This document shows positions 3,679 to 58,094 of a stretch of DNA of 64,000 nucleotides, one piece after another. The DNA is taken from assembly GCA_964565925.1 (NCBI GenBank), contig CAZMGV010000008.1, positions 2,664-66,663 of the forward strand, read 5' to 3'. Every line of letters begins with the position of its first letter. The stretch's first letter is position 1. The notes under the pieces are model-generated. The model had not been told where the DNA came from and did not search any database. It saw only the letters and a list, made by a program, of their open reading frames with translations. The stretch comes from an uncultured bacterium. GTDB taxonomy: Bacteria > JAGRBM01 > JAHCIT01. The translations under genes were made by a program, and so were the position numbers.

Positions 3679-4626
3679 ATGACTATCCACACTCCGGTCT
3701 GCGACCTCCTCGGAATCGAATACCCGGTCATCCTGGGCGGCATGATGGGCGTCTCCGACGGCGTGCTGTCGGCGGCCGTCTCGGAAGCGGGGGGCCTTGG
3801 CACGATTTCAGCGGCCACGTTCGGCGCGGCCGGCACCAAGCGGGAGATCCTCAAGCTCAAGGAGCGCACGAGCAAGCCGTTCTCGGTTAACCTGCCGATC
3901 TTCCACCCCGAAGTGCCCAAGATTGTCGAGGCGCTGCTCGAAACGGACGTGAAGATTGTCACGACCGCCGCCGGGAGCCCGGACAAGTTTACCAAGGCAC
4001 TGAAAGAACGCGGCATTATCGTCATCCATGTCATCTCGACCGTGCGGACCGCGCTCAAAGCGGAGGCCGCCGGTGTCGATATCGTGGTCGCCGAAGGGGT
4101 CGAATCGGGCGGCAAGGTGAGCCCCGAAGAGGTCCCCACCATCTCGCTCGTCCCGCAGGTCTGCGACGCGGTGAAAATACCGGTGATCGCGGCAGGCGGT
4201 CTGGCCGACGGACGGGGGTTGCTCGCGGCACTGGCGCTGGGCGCGCAGGGTGTCCAGATGGGCACGCTGTTCATTGCCTCGACCGAAGCGCCGGTACACG
4301 CCAATTGGAAGAACGTGCTGGTGAACGCCGGCGACGCGGCCACTTCGGTCGCCTGCCGCAAGTCCTCACCCACCCGGCTGATCCGGAACGAGTTTTTCTC
4401 CGAGCTGGAGGCGCAGGACGCGCCCGGCAAGCGCGCGATGGATTTCATGATGATCCAGGGCCAGGGGATGGCTCGCATTCCGGCCGACGCCGAAGGACTG
4501 AAAGGCAACTACACAGCCGGCGCCGGAGCGGGCCTCATCCACAAGGTGCGTTCCTCCGCCGACATCATCCGGGACCTGATCGCCGTGGCCGAGAAGGACC
4601 TCACTCGCCTCAACACGTTCCGCTAG
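3679..4626 (+). CDS. nitronate monooxygenase (NMO / 2-nitropropane dioxygenase family, FabK-like)
   Basis: GGMMGVSDGVLSAAVSEAGGLGTI FMN-binding N-terminus typical of NMO family; 315 aa. Confidence 0.75.
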   Translation: MTIHTPVCDLLGIEYPVILGGMMGVSDGVLSAAVSEAGGLGTISAATFGAAGTKREILKLKERTSKPFSVNLPIFHPEVPKIVEALLETDVKIVTTAAGSPDKFTKALKERGIIVIHVISTVRTALKAEAAGVDIVVAEGVESGGKVSPEEVPTISLVPQVCDAVKIPVIAAGGLADGRGLLAALALGAQGVQMGTLFIASTEAPVHANWKNVLVNAGDAATSVACRKSSPTRLIRNEFFSELEAQDAPGKRAMDFMMIQGQGMARIPADAEGLKGNYTAGAGAGLIHKVRSSADIIRDLIAVAEKDLTRLNTFR

Positions 4627-16573: not shown

Positions 16574-16610
16574 GCCTGCGCGCCTAGCAGTCTTCAGCAG
16601 TCTTTAACAG

Positions 16611-16650
16611 AGCGGCCGCTCCCCGGAAGGTGGGCGGCCGTTTTTTTTGT
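16611..16650 (+). terminator. rho-independent terminator
   Basis: GC stem cggccgc...gcggccg followed by TTTTTTTTG immediately after ORF 15656-16573. Confidence 0.7.
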
Positions 16651-16757
16651 TTGGGCCCGCCGGCCTGTGCCCAGTCTTGTTCCACGAAGCTTTAGCGAAG
16701 GGGAAAGCCGAAGGACGGAGGGGTAAGTCTCAACGGAGGAGGGTCAGGTAAATACTG

Positions 16758-17219
16758 TCATGGTATAGTTTTCGTGACGAAATATATCGCACAAACGATG
16801 CCTAAAAGCATCATACCGAATGCGCCTACTGCCGCACAGTAGCCGTGCCTAGCCCGCGACTCTATGAATTTCTTAACTTCGATCGCACGGGACGCATCAA
16901 TTTTTGCTAAGCGCGGGAATATGACGTAGCCACATAAAAATAAAGAAACCATCCATGAGAAACAGGGGATCCATACCCAATGTCCTGGAACTACTTGGCC
17001 GGGATCCTTACAATCACGATATAGCTTCAATAACCCGAGATAGACCGGCTGCATCCCTGCACTAATCGTAGCAATATGCTTCGCGGCATCCGTCAGGCTA
17101 CCGATGCTCCCCGAAATCAAATCCTCTCCCATTTTTTTATACGCCGGACTCATCTTTTCAAAACGCTCAAGCGCTTCTTGAACACTATCGGGCGCGCGTT
17201 CGCCATTGATCACAGCCAT
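16758..17219 (-). CDS. small two-TM membrane protein (island gene D)
   Basis: Two C-terminal hydrophobic helices (WVWIPCFSWMVSLFLCGYVIF; YCAAVGAFGMMLLGIVCAIYFV); 20-nt gap to upstream gene. Confidence 0.5.
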   Translation of the reverse strand: MAVINGERAPDSVQEALERFEKMSPAYKKMGEDLISGSIGSLTDAAKHIATISAGMQPVYLGLLKLYRDCKDPGQVVPGHWVWIPCFSWMVSLFLCGYVIFPRLAKIDASRAIEVKKFIESRARHGYCAAVGAFGMMLLGIVCAIYFVTKTIP

Positions 17220-17238
17220 CTCAGCGACCCCAAATCAC

Positions 17239-17451
17239 CTAAAATAGAAAGGTTACCTTGTTAGCTTTTCCACACTCTGAGCATATATCATACCGATTCT
17301 CAGCTGTCATAGGCGCGCGCACTTCCATTTTCATAATGGAATCCTTCTCCGCGGATAACATTGCTTCGACATCCTGGATCGAATACGTTTGGCTGTATAT
17401 GGAAGTATTTTCTTTCTTACAATTGAAACATGTATACTTTACCATTTTCAC
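17239..17451 (-). CDS. small zinc-ribbon protein (island gene C)
   Basis: CFNC...CSEC paired CxxC motifs in 70 aa; 31-nt gap to upstream ATPase gene. Confidence 0.5.
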   Translation of the reverse strand: MKMVKYTCFNCKKENTSIYSQTYSIQDVEAMLSAEKDSIMKMEVRAPMTAENRYDICSECGKANKVTFLF

Positions 17452-17481
17452 GAGACACCTCCCGGATATTCACAACTCATT

Positions 17482-19092
17482 TCATCCTGACAAATACTCA
17501 TAGACAGCTTCTCTAACCGAATTTTTTATCGCTCGGGATCTATGAGGCCCAACGTACTTTACTTTCTGAAGCTTCTCATCAGATGCTCTAAGCACTTGCT
17601 CTAGAGTAAGCAGATTAAGCTCCTTAAGTTTTACTTTTTGCCATTCCGTGACATCCAATAGCTCGATAGACTTAGAATATGCACTCTTAAGAATATCTGT
17701 AACATTAATGTCTGGATACAATTCTTTTTCAGGAGGCAAAGACTTGAATGATTCATGATTCATTCCGTATTCTGTCATAAGTTTAATTGACAGATTTTTT
17801 GCAAATTCAATCAATCTAATTCCTTTGATATCCATTACTTTCGACATCACGATTCCCAAATGCACCGCATAACGGGAGCCAATCTCCGCTCGTGTTGCCT
17901 TAATCCCAGTCGCATGCTCGCGAATGATCCCCGTATAAGATAAAAGTCGGAATGCGTGCCTGACGGCTTCAGGTGCATCACGGTGCAGCCAGATAAAGCA
18001 CGACGTTTTCTTATCGGATTTTAAGTACGCTTCATTTTTTTGATATAACTCGTTCAATACGTTGCCTTCGACAAAATTGCGGCCCCAATCTATTAAAGGT
18101 TTATGCCCAGTATAACTCTCAACTAACATGGAATGTTCGGACCATATGTCATCTCGGTAATACTCTCGGATAACCCGCCTCACATTATCTCCGTTTAGCT
18201 TCTTCGCTCTAAGAATCGTTTTAAAAAGTAGTCGTGGATTTCCATCAGAGGCATAAGCGAGTTCCGAAAAGTGCTCCCTATTTTCTTCAATTTGTTTAAT
18301 AAGCTGTAGGTCCCCCTGCTTTACTATCATCTCCTCCATATTCTTAATGTAATCTTCACTTAATACATCTCTATTAACATTTAAGAATGTAGCATCATGA
18401 GTAGGCTCAAATGTATCTCCGTAATTAGTGACTCCAGGGTATACGGCCGCATTACAAGTCATAAATGGACTTCGTAAATCTCTAAACAACGTAAAAAATT
18501 GTCTTTGTTGCTCTGGTTTTAAGATATGTGCGGCTTCATCAAAAAATACACAAAAGCGAGATATTCCAAAGCCGATACATATATCTTCAACAGCTTCTTT
18601 AAATTGATCTACACTCGGTAATTTCGCTATATCGACTTTTACATCTGGGTGTTCCCAAGATTGCTCATACGCTTGGACAATCTTTGCGATATCGACTTCG
18701 TCTTTGGAATATCTGATTGATGGCGATGGAGTGAGCGAAAACGCCGAACTATCCGTAAAACCATATCTTCTCATACTTCTAATTATTGATTGCCATAATT
18801 TCCCAAGCATCCAGTGCTGGAATTGCATCTGATCATTGGTCTGTATAAGTGTGCCCTTGACAAAACTAATATATATCGGGAGTACTTTGTTATTGGCGAA
18901 ATTGGCTGAAAGTTCTTGAATTGCAACTTTCAATAAAAATGATTTTCCAACGCCTCTACTGCCCACTACAATTGTCGGAGCTTTGGATTTCAGGGAGTCG
19001 ATGATCCGACGGTCTTGTTCAGATTCGACGAAATACTGAATTATATCTTCGTCTTTTATATCTTCCGTACGGAATATTAGTGGATCACTCAT
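17482..19092 (-). CDS. P-loop NTPase (AAA+/STAND-like) with C-terminal helix-hairpin-helix (RNAP alpha-CTD-like) domain (island gene B)
   Basis: Walker A VVGSRGVGKS, Walker B FCVFFDEAAH; C-terminus LTLEQVLRASDEKLQKVKYVGPHRSRAIKNSVREAV resembles alpha-CTD HhH; start at ATG 19092 with AAGGGA RBS (longer ORF to 19143 possible). Confidence 0.7.
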   Translation of the reverse strand: MSDPLIFRTEDIKDEDIIQYFVESEQDRRIIDSLKSKAPTIVVGSRGVGKSFLLKVAIQELSANFANNKVLPIYISFVKGTLIQTNDQMQFQHWMLGKLWQSIIRSMRRYGFTDSSAFSLTPSPSIRYSKDEVDIAKIVQAYEQSWEHPDVKVDIAKLPSVDQFKEAVEDICIGFGISRFCVFFDEAAHILKPEQQRQFFTLFRDLRSPFMTCNAAVYPGVTNYGDTFEPTHDATFLNVNRDVLSEDYIKNMEEMIVKQGDLQLIKQIEENREHFSELAYASDGNPRLLFKTILRAKKLNGDNVRRVIREYYRDDIWSEHSMLVESYTGHKPLIDWGRNFVEGNVLNELYQKNEAYLKSDKKTSCFIWLHRDAPEAVRHAFRLLSYTGIIREHATGIKATRAEIGSRYAVHLGIVMSKVMDIKGIRLIEFAKNLSIKLMTEYGMNHESFKSLPPEKELYPDINVTDILKSAYSKSIELLDVTEWQKVKLKELNLLTLEQVLRASDEKLQKVKYVGPHRSRAIKNSVREAVYEYLSG

Positions 19093-19096
19093 GGAA

Positions 19097-19837
19097 TTAT
19101 CCCTTACTATAATACTGTCTGAATATCGGAATACTCGAAACATTATCTTGGAATACCGGCTCTAGCAGTGCTTTATCTTCAGCATTTAAACCGGCCAGAT
19201 ACCTTGAAAATAACCCGATCTGGACGATAAAGAATACGCTATCTGCTAAGGTTAACCACTCTCGAAATACCGGTTCATTATATTCGATATCGGCCTTCAA
19301 AAAATCGGTTCGGGAGTAATTCCCGTGCACGTATTCTGAACAGGATCGATATACTTTTGCACAATGTTCTGAATAGATCGATGAATCTGTCTCTAATCCG
19401 GCGCAATATAACTTACAGTAAGAGGCGGAGAATACACCGTTGTCCTTGTTGGTCACTTCTGACCACTGCAAATCATATTTACCGGCTTTCCAGGCTCTAA
19501 AGTGATAATCATGCATCGAAAAATATATGACACCAATTGAGGCTTCCAAAAATTGGCGCAATTCAAATATTGCTTGTCGATATCCTCCAGTAGTCCCTTC
19601 ATATAGGGAGCGACTGAACCCCCAACAGCAATAGTTGAATAGTTCGACCTCCGGAGTTTCCTGAATAATATTTCGCCAAATCTCTAAATCGGCGCGCTTT
19701 GAATGGATTGCTGCCAGACGACCGGCGTGGCTAGATTGCAGCGCTAACGCCGAATTGCTTTGAACCTTCTGGATTAAGCGTGTGTATTCGCTTGTAAGCG
19801 CCGTCACCGCGATAGCTGGCTTTGAAATATCAGACAT
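19097..19837 (-). CDS. hypothetical protein (island gene A), Cys-rich, possible Rx6H (HEPN-like) motif
   Basis: 246 aa from ATG 19837 (TTG at 19849 also possible); coding-like periodicity; first gene of the island operon; RSCSEYVH motif. Confidence 0.5.
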   Translation of the reverse strand: MSDISKPAIAVTALTSEYTRLIQKVQSNSALALQSSHAGRLAAIHSKRADLEIWRNIIQETPEVELFNYCCWGFSRSLYEGTTGGYRQAIFELRQFLEASIGVIYFSMHDYHFRAWKAGKYDLQWSEVTNKDNGVFSASYCKLYCAGLETDSSIYSEHCAKVYRSCSEYVHGNYSRTDFLKADIEYNEPVFREWLTLADSVFFIVQIGLFSRYLAGLNAEDKALLEPVFQDNVSSIPIFRQYYSKG

Positions 19838-20099
19838 GTACGGTTCCAATCGTCTTTGATATCACAAAATATATACCAACTAGTAAAAGTGTTCAAAAAA
19901 ATAGTAGTAGGCGCCATCCTTATTCACAGGCTCACCACGAACGGTGCCGCTCTGAAAATGCACCTTCCGGTGCGGCTTTCCCCCGAAATTCCCGCCAGTT
20001 ACCAACTGTGACACTCCGTGACACACACGTCTGATAGGGTGCTTTGCAGGTAAGGGGGCATATGGGCCCCGCCATCACAAGTCTGCCGCTTCCATCCCT

Positions 20100-55697: not shown

Positions 55698-56765
55698 ATG
55701 AAAATCCTCGCCATCGAAACCTCGTGCGACGAAACCGCCGTCGCGCTTCTGGATGATGGCGTGGTCGCCAAGTCCCTCGTCTATTCGCAGATCCCCGACC
55801 ACCAGAAATGGGGCGGCGTCGTGCCCGAGATCGCCGCGAGAAAGCACCTCGAAGTGCTGCCGCTGCTCTACCAGGAACTGGTCAAAGAGACGGGACTGAA
55901 GTTCGCGGACTTAAAGGCCATCGCCGTCACGAGCGGCCCCGGCCTCATTGGCTGTCTGCACGTGGGACTGAACTTTGCCAAGGCGCTGTCGTTCTCCTGC
56001 GGCGTGCCGCTCTACGGGATCAATCATCTGGAAGGCCATCTGGCGTCGGTCGAACTGGTGCCGCAGGCCCCGCCGCCGCCGTGGATCGCCCTGCTCGTTT
56101 CGGGCGGCCATACGAGCCTCTATGTCGTCGAGAAGCCCGGCGCCTGCAGGCAGATCGGCGCAACGCGCGACGACGCCGCCGGTGAGGCGTTCGACAAGGG
56201 CGCGAAAATCCTGGGTCTCGGCTACCCCGGCGGGCCAATCGTCGACCGCACGGCGCAGGGCGGCGATGCCTCGAAGTTCCCCCTGCCCGTCTCCCGCATG
56301 GCGGACAGCCCCTATGACTTTTCTTTCTCGGGAGTGAAGACAGCGCTCTACTACAAGCACCGCGACGTGACGGACAAAGGTTCGCGCCCGCTCACCGACA
56401 TCGAAACGCGCGACTTCGCCGCGTCGCTGCAAAAGACGGTCGTGGAGGCGCTGCTCACCCGAGCGGTCCGCGCCTCGGACGAGTTCAACATCCGTTCGAT
56501 TGTGATTGTGGGCGGCGTGGCGGCGAACTCGCACCTGCGCGCCGAGGCCGAAAAATACGGCCGCAAGGGCTATAAACTTTTCTTCCCGCCGCTCGCCTAC
56601 TGCACCGACAACGCCGCGATGATCGGCCGCGCCGCATATAATCGCATCAAGGCCGGCACCCCGCCGGACGGGCTCGATATTAGTCCCAAAGCCCGCTGGC
56701 CCGTGGCGGATAACCTGTCCGATACGTCGGTCCCCAAACGGGAGAAGCCCCGGACGGGGAGGTAG
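55698..56765 (+). CDS. tsaD: tRNA N6-adenosine threonylcarbamoyltransferase TsaD
   Basis: MKILAIETSCDETAVAL… Kae1/YgjD family. Confidence 0.9.
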   Translation: MKILAIETSCDETAVALLDDGVVAKSLVYSQIPDHQKWGGVVPEIAARKHLEVLPLLYQELVKETGLKFADLKAIAVTSGPGLIGCLHVGLNFAKALSFSCGVPLYGINHLEGHLASVELVPQAPPPPWIALLVSGGHTSLYVVEKPGACRQIGATRDDAAGEAFDKGAKILGLGYPGGPIVDRTAQGGDASKFPLPVSRMADSPYDFSFSGVKTALYYKHRDVTDKGSRPLTDIETRDFAASLQKTVVEALLTRAVRASDEFNIRSIVIVGGVAANSHLRAEAEKYGRKGYKLFFPPLAYCTDNAAMIGRAAYNRIKAGTPPDGLDISPKARWPVADNLSDTSVPKREKPRTGR

Positions 56766-56968
56766 GGGCTATAAGACCTGCCGCTCCATCAATACATTCT
56801 TGTTTTTGTTAATTTATCGCCCCTAACTCCGCGACATTCCTGAGCTCCGGTTCCCGCCGCTTGGTCCATTTAGGCTCATTTAGGGCCACGCGGGTTTCGC
56901 CCCCTTGTCAGTGCGGAGAGCGTTGTTAAAAAAAACGGGTGACCCTTCGGGCATCCGGTTCAGGTGCA

Positions 56969-57019
56969 CCCCCACCCCAACCCCTCCCCCTGGAGGGGGG
57001 GGGAGGGGTTGGGGTGGGG
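56969..57019. repeat. perfect C-rich/G-rich palindrome (potential cruciform / i-motif / G4)
   Basis: cccccaccccaacccctccccc-tgga-gggggggggaggggttggggtgggg; within 423-bp tsaD-rsmA intergenic region. Confidence 0.85.
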
Positions 57020-57188
57020 AAGTAAAAGGCGGAGCAAGGGGGCAATGAGAGGAGGGGGGGACCCCACCTCACATCAACACGGTTAAACACGAATGGACAC
57101 GAGAAATGCGGTACTGGTTTCCGGGCCAAAACAGACATAGCTGTCCACTTTCCACCGAAAAACACGGAATAACACAGAACGAACGGCT

Positions 57189-58094
57189 ATGTTCCCCGTT
57201 GTGACCGATCCCTCCCCCCCCCTCTCCCCGCAGTTCCGGCCGTCGAAGCGGCTGGGCCAGAACTTTCTGGTGGACCGCAACATTGCGGCGAAGATCGCCA
57301 GCCACGCGCTGGCGCCTATGCCCGGAAATACAGGGGGGGCGGGGGTAAAGATTCTCGAGATCGGCCCCGGTCAGGGGGCGCTGACCAAAGAATTAATGAA
57401 CCAGGGGGCGGAGGTGACCGCCATCGAGGTGGACTACCGGCTGGCGGAAGCACTGCCGGGACTTTTGCCCAAACCGATCGAGATCGTCCGGGCGGACGCC
57501 CTCGATACCGACTGGGCGAAGTTCCTGCCCGAACGGGGGATCCGCAGGATCGCCGCCAACCTGCCCTACTCCATCTCGACCGAAATCCTGTTCGGCCTGA
57601 TCGAGTCGGCCGGGGCCTGGGACCTCGCGGTATTGATGCTCCAGTCGGAAGTCGCCGACCGGCTGGCGGCCAAGCCCGGTTCCAAGGATTACGGTTCGTT
57701 GAGCGTGGCGATGCAGCTCCAGTGCGAGGTGAAGCTGGCCTTCCGGGTGCCGCCGACCGTGTTCAGGCCGGTGCCCAAAGTCCGCTCTGCCGTGGTCGAA
57801 CTGCGCACCCGCCCGGGGGCCGCCAGCTTCGAGACGGCGCGGGAGCGGAGCAAGATCGTGCGCGGCGCGTTCGCCCACCGGCGCAAGACGATCGCCAACT
57901 CGCTGGAGCTGTCTCTGGGACTCAAGTCGACGGAGATACGGGAGATTCTGAAAAGCGCGGACGTCGATCCGGGCAGCCGGGCGGAGGTTCACCCGCCGCC
58001 TGTGTTCATTCGCCTTTACGAAGGTTGGCGGTCGTATCGGGATCGAACAGCGACCGCTGGCCCGGAATCTCGTCCTCATACTTGCGGAGAATGA
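57189..58094 (+). CDS. rsmA: 16S rRNA (adenine1518/1519-N6)-dimethyltransferase RsmA/KsgA
   Basis: RLGQNFLVD motif and SAM-binding EIGPGQGALT. Confidence 0.85.
   Translation: MFPVVTDPSPPLSPQFRPSKRLGQNFLVDRNIAAKIASHALAPMPGNTGGAGVKILEIGPGQGALTKELMNQGAEVTAIEVDYRLAEALPGLLPKPIEIVRADALDTDWAKFLPERGIRRIAANLPYSISTEILFGLIESAGAWDLAVLMLQSEVADRLAAKPGSKDYGSLSVAMQLQCEVKLAFRVPPTVFRPVPKVRSAVVELRTRPGAASFETARERSKIVRGAFAHRRKTIANSLELSLGLKSTEIREILKSADVDPGSRAEVHPPPVFIRLYEGWRSYRDRTATAGPESRPHTCGE

Follow-up and report, generated by a model that had tools for sequence, protein, structure and literature searches.

A perfect G/C-tract palindrome between tsaD and rsmA in an uncultured bacterium, probably a collapsed pair of dispersed triplex-motif repeat units

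The closest described systems to the element that we consider here are the BoxC repeats, also known as PIT (potential intrastrand triplex) elements or TMECO, which are found in Escherichia coli and other Proteobacteria (Bachellier et al. 1990s; Hoyne et al. 2000; Holder et al. 2015, PMC4666352). Our element is a palindrome of C and G tracts at positions 56969-57019 of a 64,000-nucleotide stretch of DNA, hereafter the window, which belongs to a metagenome-assembled genome (MAG) of an uncultured bacterium (assembly GCA_964565925.1, contig CAZMGV010000008.1), and it lies between the genes tsaD and rsmA. The TMECO elements follow the pattern CCCTCNCCC-N3-6-GGGNGAGGG-N3-GGGNGAGGG, which occurs 3610 times in 262 proteobacterial genomes. 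They form a stable structure in vitro that nuclear magnetic resonance (NMR) identified as a triplex and not a G-quadruplex, while none was detected in vivo. They had neither promoter nor terminator activity, and they are associated with variable genomic regions. Their palindromic pairs tend to shed parts, leaving a plain stable stem-loop, which has been called the 'palindrome effect'. The introduction of the same study also states that RNA does not form triplexes of the purine motif (Holder et al. 2015, PMC4666352).

Other known systems come close in some respects. The repetitive extragenic palindromic sequences and bacterial interspersed mosaic elements (REP/BIME, including the REPINs) of Enterobacteria and Pseudomonas are, like the palindrome, short, GC-rich, extragenic and dispersed, often within operons or at the 3' ends of genes, and their RNA hairpins are able to stabilise the upstream mRNA. 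The REPs, which are present in hundreds of copies and go along with a RAYT gene, form imperfect palindromes of 20-40 bp and lack a third mirror block. The window palindrome does not carry the 5' GT(A/G)G tetranucleotide, and for want of this GTAG head it does not belong among them. Rho-independent terminators and miniature inverted-repeat transposable elements (MITEs) are two further points of comparison, to which we return below together with the relevant features.

Positions 56969-57020 of the window read CCCCCACCCCAACCCCTCCCCC-TGGAGGGG-GGGGGAGGGGTTGGGGTGGGG-A. A repeat search resolves them into a C-rich arm (CCCCACCCC-AA-CCCCTCCCCC, 56970-56990), a spacer or loop of 8 nt (TGGAGGGG, 56991-56998) and a G-rich arm (GGGGGAGGGG-TT-GGGGTGGGG, 56999-57019), with arms of 21 nt each that are 100% complementary. 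An earlier note on this DNA, made from the letters alone, had described a perfect palindrome of 20 bp at this place; it is there indeed, and one base longer per arm. It is the sole long spaced inverted repeat within the 64 kb. When the sequence was shuffled 40 times with its dinucleotides preserved, perfect inverted repeats (spacer of at most 20 nt) reached maximum lengths of 9-14 nt, against the 21 observed, which confirms that the palindrome is real and not due to chance. The pattern GGGGNGGGGNNGGGGNGGGG, with up to two mismatches, matches the window five times where 0.34 matches are expected, always at the palindrome or at 57210-57229. Folded in isolation, the hairpin reaches -56.2 kcal/mol as + strand RNA, -54.0 as - strand RNA and -30.2 as DNA (z of about -5 to -6). 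The very stable hairpin or cruciform that the note had proposed is thus borne out by the folding energies. Its description of each arm as a textbook G-quadruplex or i-motif tract is correct too; G4-A-G4-TT-G4-T-G4 is a perfect quadruplex motif with 1-2-1 loops, present on both strands.

That first reading had the structure right and missed two things, the third-strand logic of a triplex motif and the dispersed-repeat core within the arm. The former was revealed by a finder modelled on ITxF (Holder et al. 2015) for class II, or purine-motif, intrastrand triplexes. Such a motif consists of a pyrimidine stem of 6-15 nt, a loop of 1-6 nt, a Watson-Crick complementary purine stem, a second loop of 1-6 nt and a third block that mirrors the purine stem (G.G-C, A.A-T and T.A-T triads) with at most one mismatch. 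On the + strand, the finder returned a complete unit at 56981-57019, made of the C stem CCCCTCCCCC, the loop, the G stem GGGGGAGGGG, TT and the mirror G stem GGGGTGGGG; the reported span was 56981-57020, the stem being 10 nt long and the final A counting as the one mismatch. On the - strand, a mirror unit at 56969-57008 uses the same C-stem/G-stem hairpin, and the two form a fully overlapped head-to-head pair. They are the only such units in the 64 kb, and the 40 shuffles contained none. Both strands share the 10-nt stem CCCCTCCCCC/GGGGGAGGGG and the third block, in which TT is followed by GGGGTGGGG with T opposite A. The loop of the - unit has 6 nt, and that of the + unit has 8 nt in the sequence as it stands, which slippage of the G9 run would reduce to 4 nt (TGGA). 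In this collapsed form, going by the computed DNA energy of -30 kcal/mol, the 21-bp hairpin should out-compete the triplex.

The second thing that had been missed is that the G-rich arm holds, at 57000-57019 and on the opposite strand at 56970-56989, the exact 20-mer GGGGAGGGGTTGGGGTGGGG of a dispersed repeat family, with the C stem at 56981-56990. This 20-mer was found in at least 120 metagenome stretches and in 94 viral-contig stretches, while control 20-mers of equal composition were found in the viral contigs 0 times (stems swapped) and 4 times (AA linker). In 175 of 202 distinct contexts, a C-stem hairpin (CCCCTCCCC and a short loop, mostly TTCA) stands directly 5' of it. The usual context is CCCCTCCCC-TTCA-GGGGAGGGG-TT-GGGGTGGGG, in which a C stem comes first, followed by the G stem that complements it and then by the mirror G stem. 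About half of these contexts also have CCCCACCC 25-45 nt downstream of the 20-mer. An alignment of 59 complete elements of about 105-120 nt (A1) reads AAG-CCCCTCCCC-TTCA-GGGGAGGGG-TT-GGGGTGGGG-variable core-CCCCACCCC-NN-CCCCTCCCC-TGAA-GGGGAGGGG-CTT, so that the canonical element consists of two inverted units set tail to tail around a core of 25-45 nt. Its two halves, loops included, remain mutually complementary; in one subfamily the right hairpin is kept through a compensatory register shift (CCCTCCCCC...GGGGGAGGG), and the G-tract pattern is invariant across the family. The window copy has the core that defines this family, its 20-mer being preceded by CCCCTCCCC and a loop (3-5 nt in the family). 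It is not a canonical element, which has two tail-to-tail units, a core of 25-45 nt and AAG...CTT flanks, whereas the units of the window are head to head and fully overlapped.

The family resembles BoxC/PIT/TMECO in its build, in which a 9-nt C stem and its complementary G stem enclose a loop of 3-6 nt and a second, short loop leads on to the mirror G stem, and in its habits, being intergenic, multi-copy and often arranged in inverted pairs, with a G part that is also a quadruplex motif. It differs in its sequence (C4TC4/G4AG4/TT/G4TG4, with tracts of four and not three G and a second loop of 2 nt) and in its hosts, which are mainly Alphaproteobacteria, together with a Spirosoma copy and the MAG of the window. 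The window copy stands further apart because it is fully collapsed, with the third strand Watson-Crick paired, and its arrangement C4TC5/G5AG4/TT/G4TG4 does not match the TMECO/BoxC pattern in the strict sense. With its 34-nt terminal inverted repeats around a variable core, the canonical element of about 105-120 nt also recalls a MITE. However, no convincing target-site duplication appeared among 60 canonical elements, where a weak excess of 1-2 nt (AG) is confounded by the AAG with which the element itself ends, and no parent insertion sequence was identified. The cores in two same-contig pairs, the only informative ones, had similarities of 0.64 and 0.78 against a background of 0.53. As for the window copy, it has no core, and the 468-nt segment around it (56766-57233) has no terminal inverted repeats at its ends, so it is not a MITE.

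In the plasmid database PLSDB, the family consensus matched at 158 places in 15 records, most of these places lying in Sphingomonas parapaucimobilis and others in Sphingobium, Rhizobium, Sinorhizobium and Pararhizobium, nearly always without an annotated feature beneath the match; the window palindrome itself, used as a BLAST query, gave no match there, probably on account of the low-complexity filter. One of these copies (L304, 28940-29037) lies between the convergent genes pncB and ompA and adjoins a gene transfer agent (GTA) cluster. Many of the family-bearing 'viral' contigs are records of about 16 kb from isolate genomes, and we suspect that these are GTA clusters as well. By gene context, 88 family copies were tandem, 41 'inside', 9 divergent and 8 convergent, counts that are indicative only, as they come from a crude caller based on third-codon-position GC that recovered 30 of 51 annotated genes. 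Rfam returned no family in the 15 family loci submitted to it, where the sub-threshold matches were generic miRNA hairpins. In the searchable literature, the exact sequence strings had no relevant occurrence, and publications on RIME/Sm-repeats and on MITEs in Sphingomonadales held no description of the family element.

Tail to tail is not the only arrangement in the family. On pSymB of Sinorhizobium meliloti (L309), CCCCTCCCC-AA-CCCCTCCCC-ACAA-GGGGGAGGGG is followed, after a spacer of about 75 nt, by CCCCTCCCCC-TTGT-GGGGAGGGG-TT-GGGGAGGGG, which makes a head-to-head pair between two co-directional sugar genes; further pairs of this kind were seen in two other loci (L192 and L203). If such a pair loses its spacer together with one of the two hairpin copies, what is left is CCCCACCCC-AA-CCCCTCCCC-loop-GGGGAGGGG-TT-GGGGTGGGG, which is the structure of the window. 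A collapsed single hairpin also exists elsewhere (L089), 17 nt past the stop codon of a gene for a VWA-domain protein and flanked by AAAA/TTT. Since the adjoining protein is 91% identical to one of Spirosoma flavus, the repeat module is not restricted to the Alphaproteobacteria. As a GC-rich hairpin, the palindrome resembles a Rho-independent terminator, and the Spirosoma hairpin, with its AAAA/TTT flanks, could terminate in both directions. In contrast, the window hairpin is followed by no U-tract on either strand (AAGTAAAAGG on the + strand, TGCACCTGAA on the - strand) and is not a terminator of this type. Another collapsed-type copy (L199, about 4230-4320) reads CCCCCACCCC-TGG-CCTCTCCCCC-GCCAGC-GGGGGAGGGG-TT-GGGGTGGGGGG and appears within or directly 5' of an open reading frame (ORF) whose translation includes NNIYGVDID, a string that we take to resemble an N6-adenine methyltransferase motif.

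The palindrome lies in DNA that is peculiar to its host lineage. The genes tsaD (55698-56765, + strand; PF00814, 2.3e-88) and rsmA/ksgA (57189-58094, + strand; PF00398, 1.7e-51) are separated by the 423 bp that the earlier note had given, and its impression of an unusually long spacer is confirmed by three syntenic relatives, in which 5, 7 and 59 bp are found. A large protein database contains four relatives whose TsaD is 65-73% identical, and three of them (69-73%) keep the order of a yfiO-like gene, tsaD, rsmA, a ribbon-helix-helix gene and an extracytoplasmic function sigma factor. In the window and in these three, TsaD ends with KPRTGR* and RsmA can be aligned from FRPSK onward. Because 468 nt separate the two conserved ends in the window, against 17, 25 and 95 nt in the relatives, the palindrome is placed in a lineage-specific insertion. 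This segment, 56766-57233, has a GC content of 0.575 (0.623 for the window) and provides the start codon and the first 15 codons of rsmA. The palindrome is absent at the tsaD-rsmA junction of the three relatives, and its position is not conserved. A scan of a genome collection found no TsaD closer than 49% identity, hence no close relative and no comparative spacer from that source. The first 15 codons of rsmA (MFPVVTDPSPPLSPQ, 57189-57233) have no counterpart in the relatives, and part of their coding sequence is a C tract, itself a degenerate version of the repeat module; from this comparison, the original start of rsmA seems to have been replaced through the insertion.

The best reading of the palindrome is that of an ordinary dispersed repeat, neither a dedicated gene nor a switch, because the same repeat is found hundreds of times in other bacteria and the surrounding DNA is absent from close relatives. 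More precisely, we propose, with a probability of about 0.7, that two non-coding repeat units of the BoxC/PIT kind, once arranged head to head, collapsed into this remnant, and that it serves no dedicated cellular role. Its 20-nt core is identical to that of a widely dispersed family, the relatives lack it, and the spacer shows no terminator, promoter or small RNA (sRNA) signatures. The earlier note had itself named a common dispersed repeat without positional conservation as the outcome that would speak against its functional candidates, and this is what we see, both in other genomes and for the position of the element.

According to this proposal, the ancestral unit would begin with a hairpin, made of a C stem of 9-10 nt, a short loop and the G stem complementary to it, and would continue after TT with another G stem that mirrors the first. 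In single-stranded DNA this last G stem could bend back onto the hairpin and so complete a purine-motif triplex (G.G-C and T.A-T triads) as its third strand. In the window, the units of the + and - strands would share one hairpin, each third-strand segment pairing in Watson-Crick fashion with that of the other unit, which is why a single perfect 21-bp hairpin results and why this hairpin should dominate over the triplex, the G-quadruplex and the i-motif. An insertion of about 370-450 nt, specific to the lineage, would have split the once tight tsaD-rsmA pair and given rsmA its new start. At the DNA level, the palindrome would be a hairpin- or cruciform-prone site, of the kind tied to local deletions, inversions and template switching, and its uncollapsed ancestors would also have been prone to triplex and quadruplex formation. 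Such local instability would also account for the inverted copies of G/C tracts in the neighbourhood, and we infer a link between it and the tsaD-rsmA insertion. A recombination or instability hotspot was among the roles suggested in the earlier note, and it is the only one of them that fits both the published behaviour of the class and the lineage-specific insertion. At the RNA level, provided that tsaD and rsmA are still co-transcribed, the hairpin of -56 kcal/mol may act as a passive barrier to exonucleases or as a partial uncoupler, by analogy with the REP hairpins.

Several points weigh against this proposal. Across its 64 kb the window has one locus, and none turned up in the close relatives, whose loci (L082-L088, on partly overlapping contigs) cover about 60 kb; with one locus only in the sequence examined, dispersal within the host genome is unproven. 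Tail to tail is the common arrangement of the family, while collapsed forms make up about 1% of the sampled copies, and a dedicated scan of viral contigs for the collapsed-hairpin pattern gave 0 matches. The host lineage is distant from the Alphaproteobacteria, as judged from the 49% identity of its closest TsaD in the genome collection. That the palindrome is homologous to the alphaproteobacterial family is likely, yet short of proof, because a low-complexity sequence of 20 nt that is constrained by its structure could in principle arise by convergence. Finally, the lack of a dedicated cellular function is something that we infer from the absence of conservation.

An alternative that we consider unlikely is that the palindrome is of local origin, a G/C-tract quasi-palindrome perfected by intramolecular template switching in a fast-evolving spacer, its identity to the family being convergent. 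Template-switch mutation at quasipalindromes, reportedly described by Ripley in 1982 and by the Lovett laboratory, would explain how imperfect inverted repeats become perfect as well as the presence of inverted tract copies in the spacer, although it is a mutational mechanism and not an element family. The insertion does contain such copies. The 3' end of tsaD, stop codon included (56755-56774), has an inverted copy at 56814-56833, 85% complementary across a T-rich loop of 39 nt. A second, smaller G/C-tract hairpin on the + strand at 57045-57074 (GAGG-A-GGGG GGGA CCCC-A-CCTC; -16.2 kcal/mol, z -2.6) is a degenerate copy of the palindrome modules, and its CCCCACCTCA (57062-57071) is 90% complementary to TGGGGTGGGG at 57010-57019. 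The C tract CCGATCCCTCCCCCCCCCTCTCCCC at 57205-57229 on the + strand, within codons 6-14 of rsmA, represents the AA-CCCCTCCCC module a third time, in degenerate form, and its first 20 nt (57205-57224, codons 6-12) are 90% complementary to the G arm at 56993-57012. The single locus in 64 kb and the distance between this host and the main hosts of the family also fit a local origin. Convergence would nevertheless have to reproduce all 20 positions of the core, including the TT linker and the order of A then T, while the swapped and AA-linker controls are at least 20-fold rarer; besides, the TGGA loop obtained by slippage of the G run resembles the TGAA (and TTCA) loops of the family, and the collapsed form is also found in Spirosoma.

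Rather less probable, in our opinion, is a selected intercistronic RNA element of the REP/BIME type, which would shield the tsaD mRNA from 3'-5' exonucleases or attenuate the read-through into rsmA and so set the ratio of the two enzymes. The hairpin, very stable as RNA (-56 kcal/mol), does stand between co-directional genes that are adjacent in relatives, as does the S. meliloti copy and, according to the crude context count, the majority of the family copies. Moreover, an alternative pairing near the start codon would be possible, since the G arm has a 90% complementary partner in the 20 nt of the C tract that span rsmA codons 6-12. Yet the perfect arms out-compete this pairing, the element is absent at the junction in the three relatives, there is no U-tract on either strand, and the PIT/TMECO elements were devoid of promoter or terminator activity when assayed (Holder et al. 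2015, PMC4666352).

A more speculative and still doubtful possibility is that the C4TC4-loop-G4AG4-TT-G4TG4 unit is the core of an unnamed family of elements that moves between phyla and is selected by a protein or for a non-B DNA structure, triplex or quadruplex. The window copy would then be the trace of an event, either an acquisition or a rearrangement, by which the tsaD-rsmA operon was broken up and rsmA received its new start codon and first 15 codons. The unit is seen in Alphaproteobacteria, in a contig of Spirosoma (Bacteroidota) and in the deep-branching MAG of the window, with its 20 nt conserved to the base.

We hold a regulatory G-quadruplex or i-motif to be improbable. The idea, which was among the suggestions of the earlier note, is that a four-tetrad quadruplex in DNA or RNA modulates the transcription or translation of rsmA, and it draws on the perfect motif with its 1-2-1 loops on both strands and on the invariance of the G-tract pattern across the family. 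However, on each strand a C tract of perfect complementarity lies 8 nt from the G tract, and for this reason the hairpin competes strongly with the quadruplex. The motif lies about 170 nt 5' of the start codon, in a position that is not conserved. In addition, TMECO oligonucleotides formed a triplex and not a quadruplex by NMR, and neither was detected in vivo (Holder et al. 2015, PMC4666352).

The sRNA with a strong terminator that the earlier note had put forward finds no support in the spacer, and we consider it very improbable that either strand encodes an sRNA for which the hairpin would be the terminator or the main structural domain. What speaks for it is a long spacer, a strong hairpin and a T8 run 37 nt downstream on the minus strand. 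Against this, a scan of the spacer for promoter-like and terminator-like sites found 0, the palindrome hairpin has no U-tract, and the candidate hairpin that precedes the T8 run of the minus strand does not stand out from shuffles (z -0.17). Rfam gave 0 matches in the window at the gathering threshold and, in E-value mode, generic noise of miRNA-precursor hairpins far below threshold. Without the palindrome, the spacer folds like shuffles on both strands (z -0.07 and +0.10). No homologous spacer exists in the three relatives or in the more than 200 family loci, and the ORFs of the region are low-complexity read-throughs without Pfam match. Lastly, an artefact of sequencing or assembly in a homopolymer-rich region, for which the G9 run and a contig break 8 nt before rsmA might be invoked, can be dismissed, since an independent Logan contig (L001, SRR14271334) from a second assembler is 100% identical over 415 bp, palindrome included, and the 20-mer is found mid-contig in hundreds of unrelated assemblies as well as in finished replicons. 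That Logan contig ends at window position 57180, shortly before the C tract at 57205-57229, which resembles the palindrome arm, a hint that de Bruijn-graph assemblies are interrupted here by the repeated G/C tracts.

If the palindrome is, as we propose, a collapsed pair of dispersed repeat units, its annotation should name it a dispersed, non-coding repeat located within a variable spacer, and not an sRNA, a riboswitch or a dedicated quadruplex switch. Its 20-nt core is present in hundreds of contigs from several phyla, and yet it is unannotated where we checked and absent from Rfam. Annotation pipelines could mask this core, which otherwise yields spurious ORFs rich in proline and glycine. 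The series that leads from tail-to-tail elements through head-to-head pairs to the collapsed hairpin would provide natural examples of the 'palindrome effect' of E. coli, and the insertion shows how such repeats go along with changes in which two tightly spaced genes are separated and the 5' end of one is replaced.

The rest of the spacer calls for fewer remarks. When compared with the window and with the more than 200 family loci, the 423-bp spacer resembles the latter solely at the palindrome, and no further copy of it was found in the window or in the fetched loci. The small ORFs across the palindrome (40-79 aa) were rejected as genes, being low-complexity read-throughs without Pfam match, and a search for tRNA and tmRNA found none. 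The direct repeat catttagg (56867-56874 and 56877-56884) and the A8 run (56928-56935) that the earlier note had listed are both present. Just 5' of rsmA, three A/C-rich 15-mers (AACACGGTTAAACAC, AACACGAATGGACAC and AACACGGAATAACAC) lie at 57076-57100 and 57161-57175, and they could be a protein-binding or promoter-associated repeat.

Elsewhere in the window, positions 16600-20000 form a low-GC island (0.36-0.51, against 0.63 for the window) with three ORFs on the minus strand. Two of them, of 153 and 250 aa, gave no Pfam match and no match, respectively. The third, of 553 aa, has an ORC-CDC6-like/AAA N-terminus (PF24389, 2.9e-13), and its PADLOC matches, to PDC-S01 and mad8, are both marginal. 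This island was probably acquired horizontally and is possibly related to defence.

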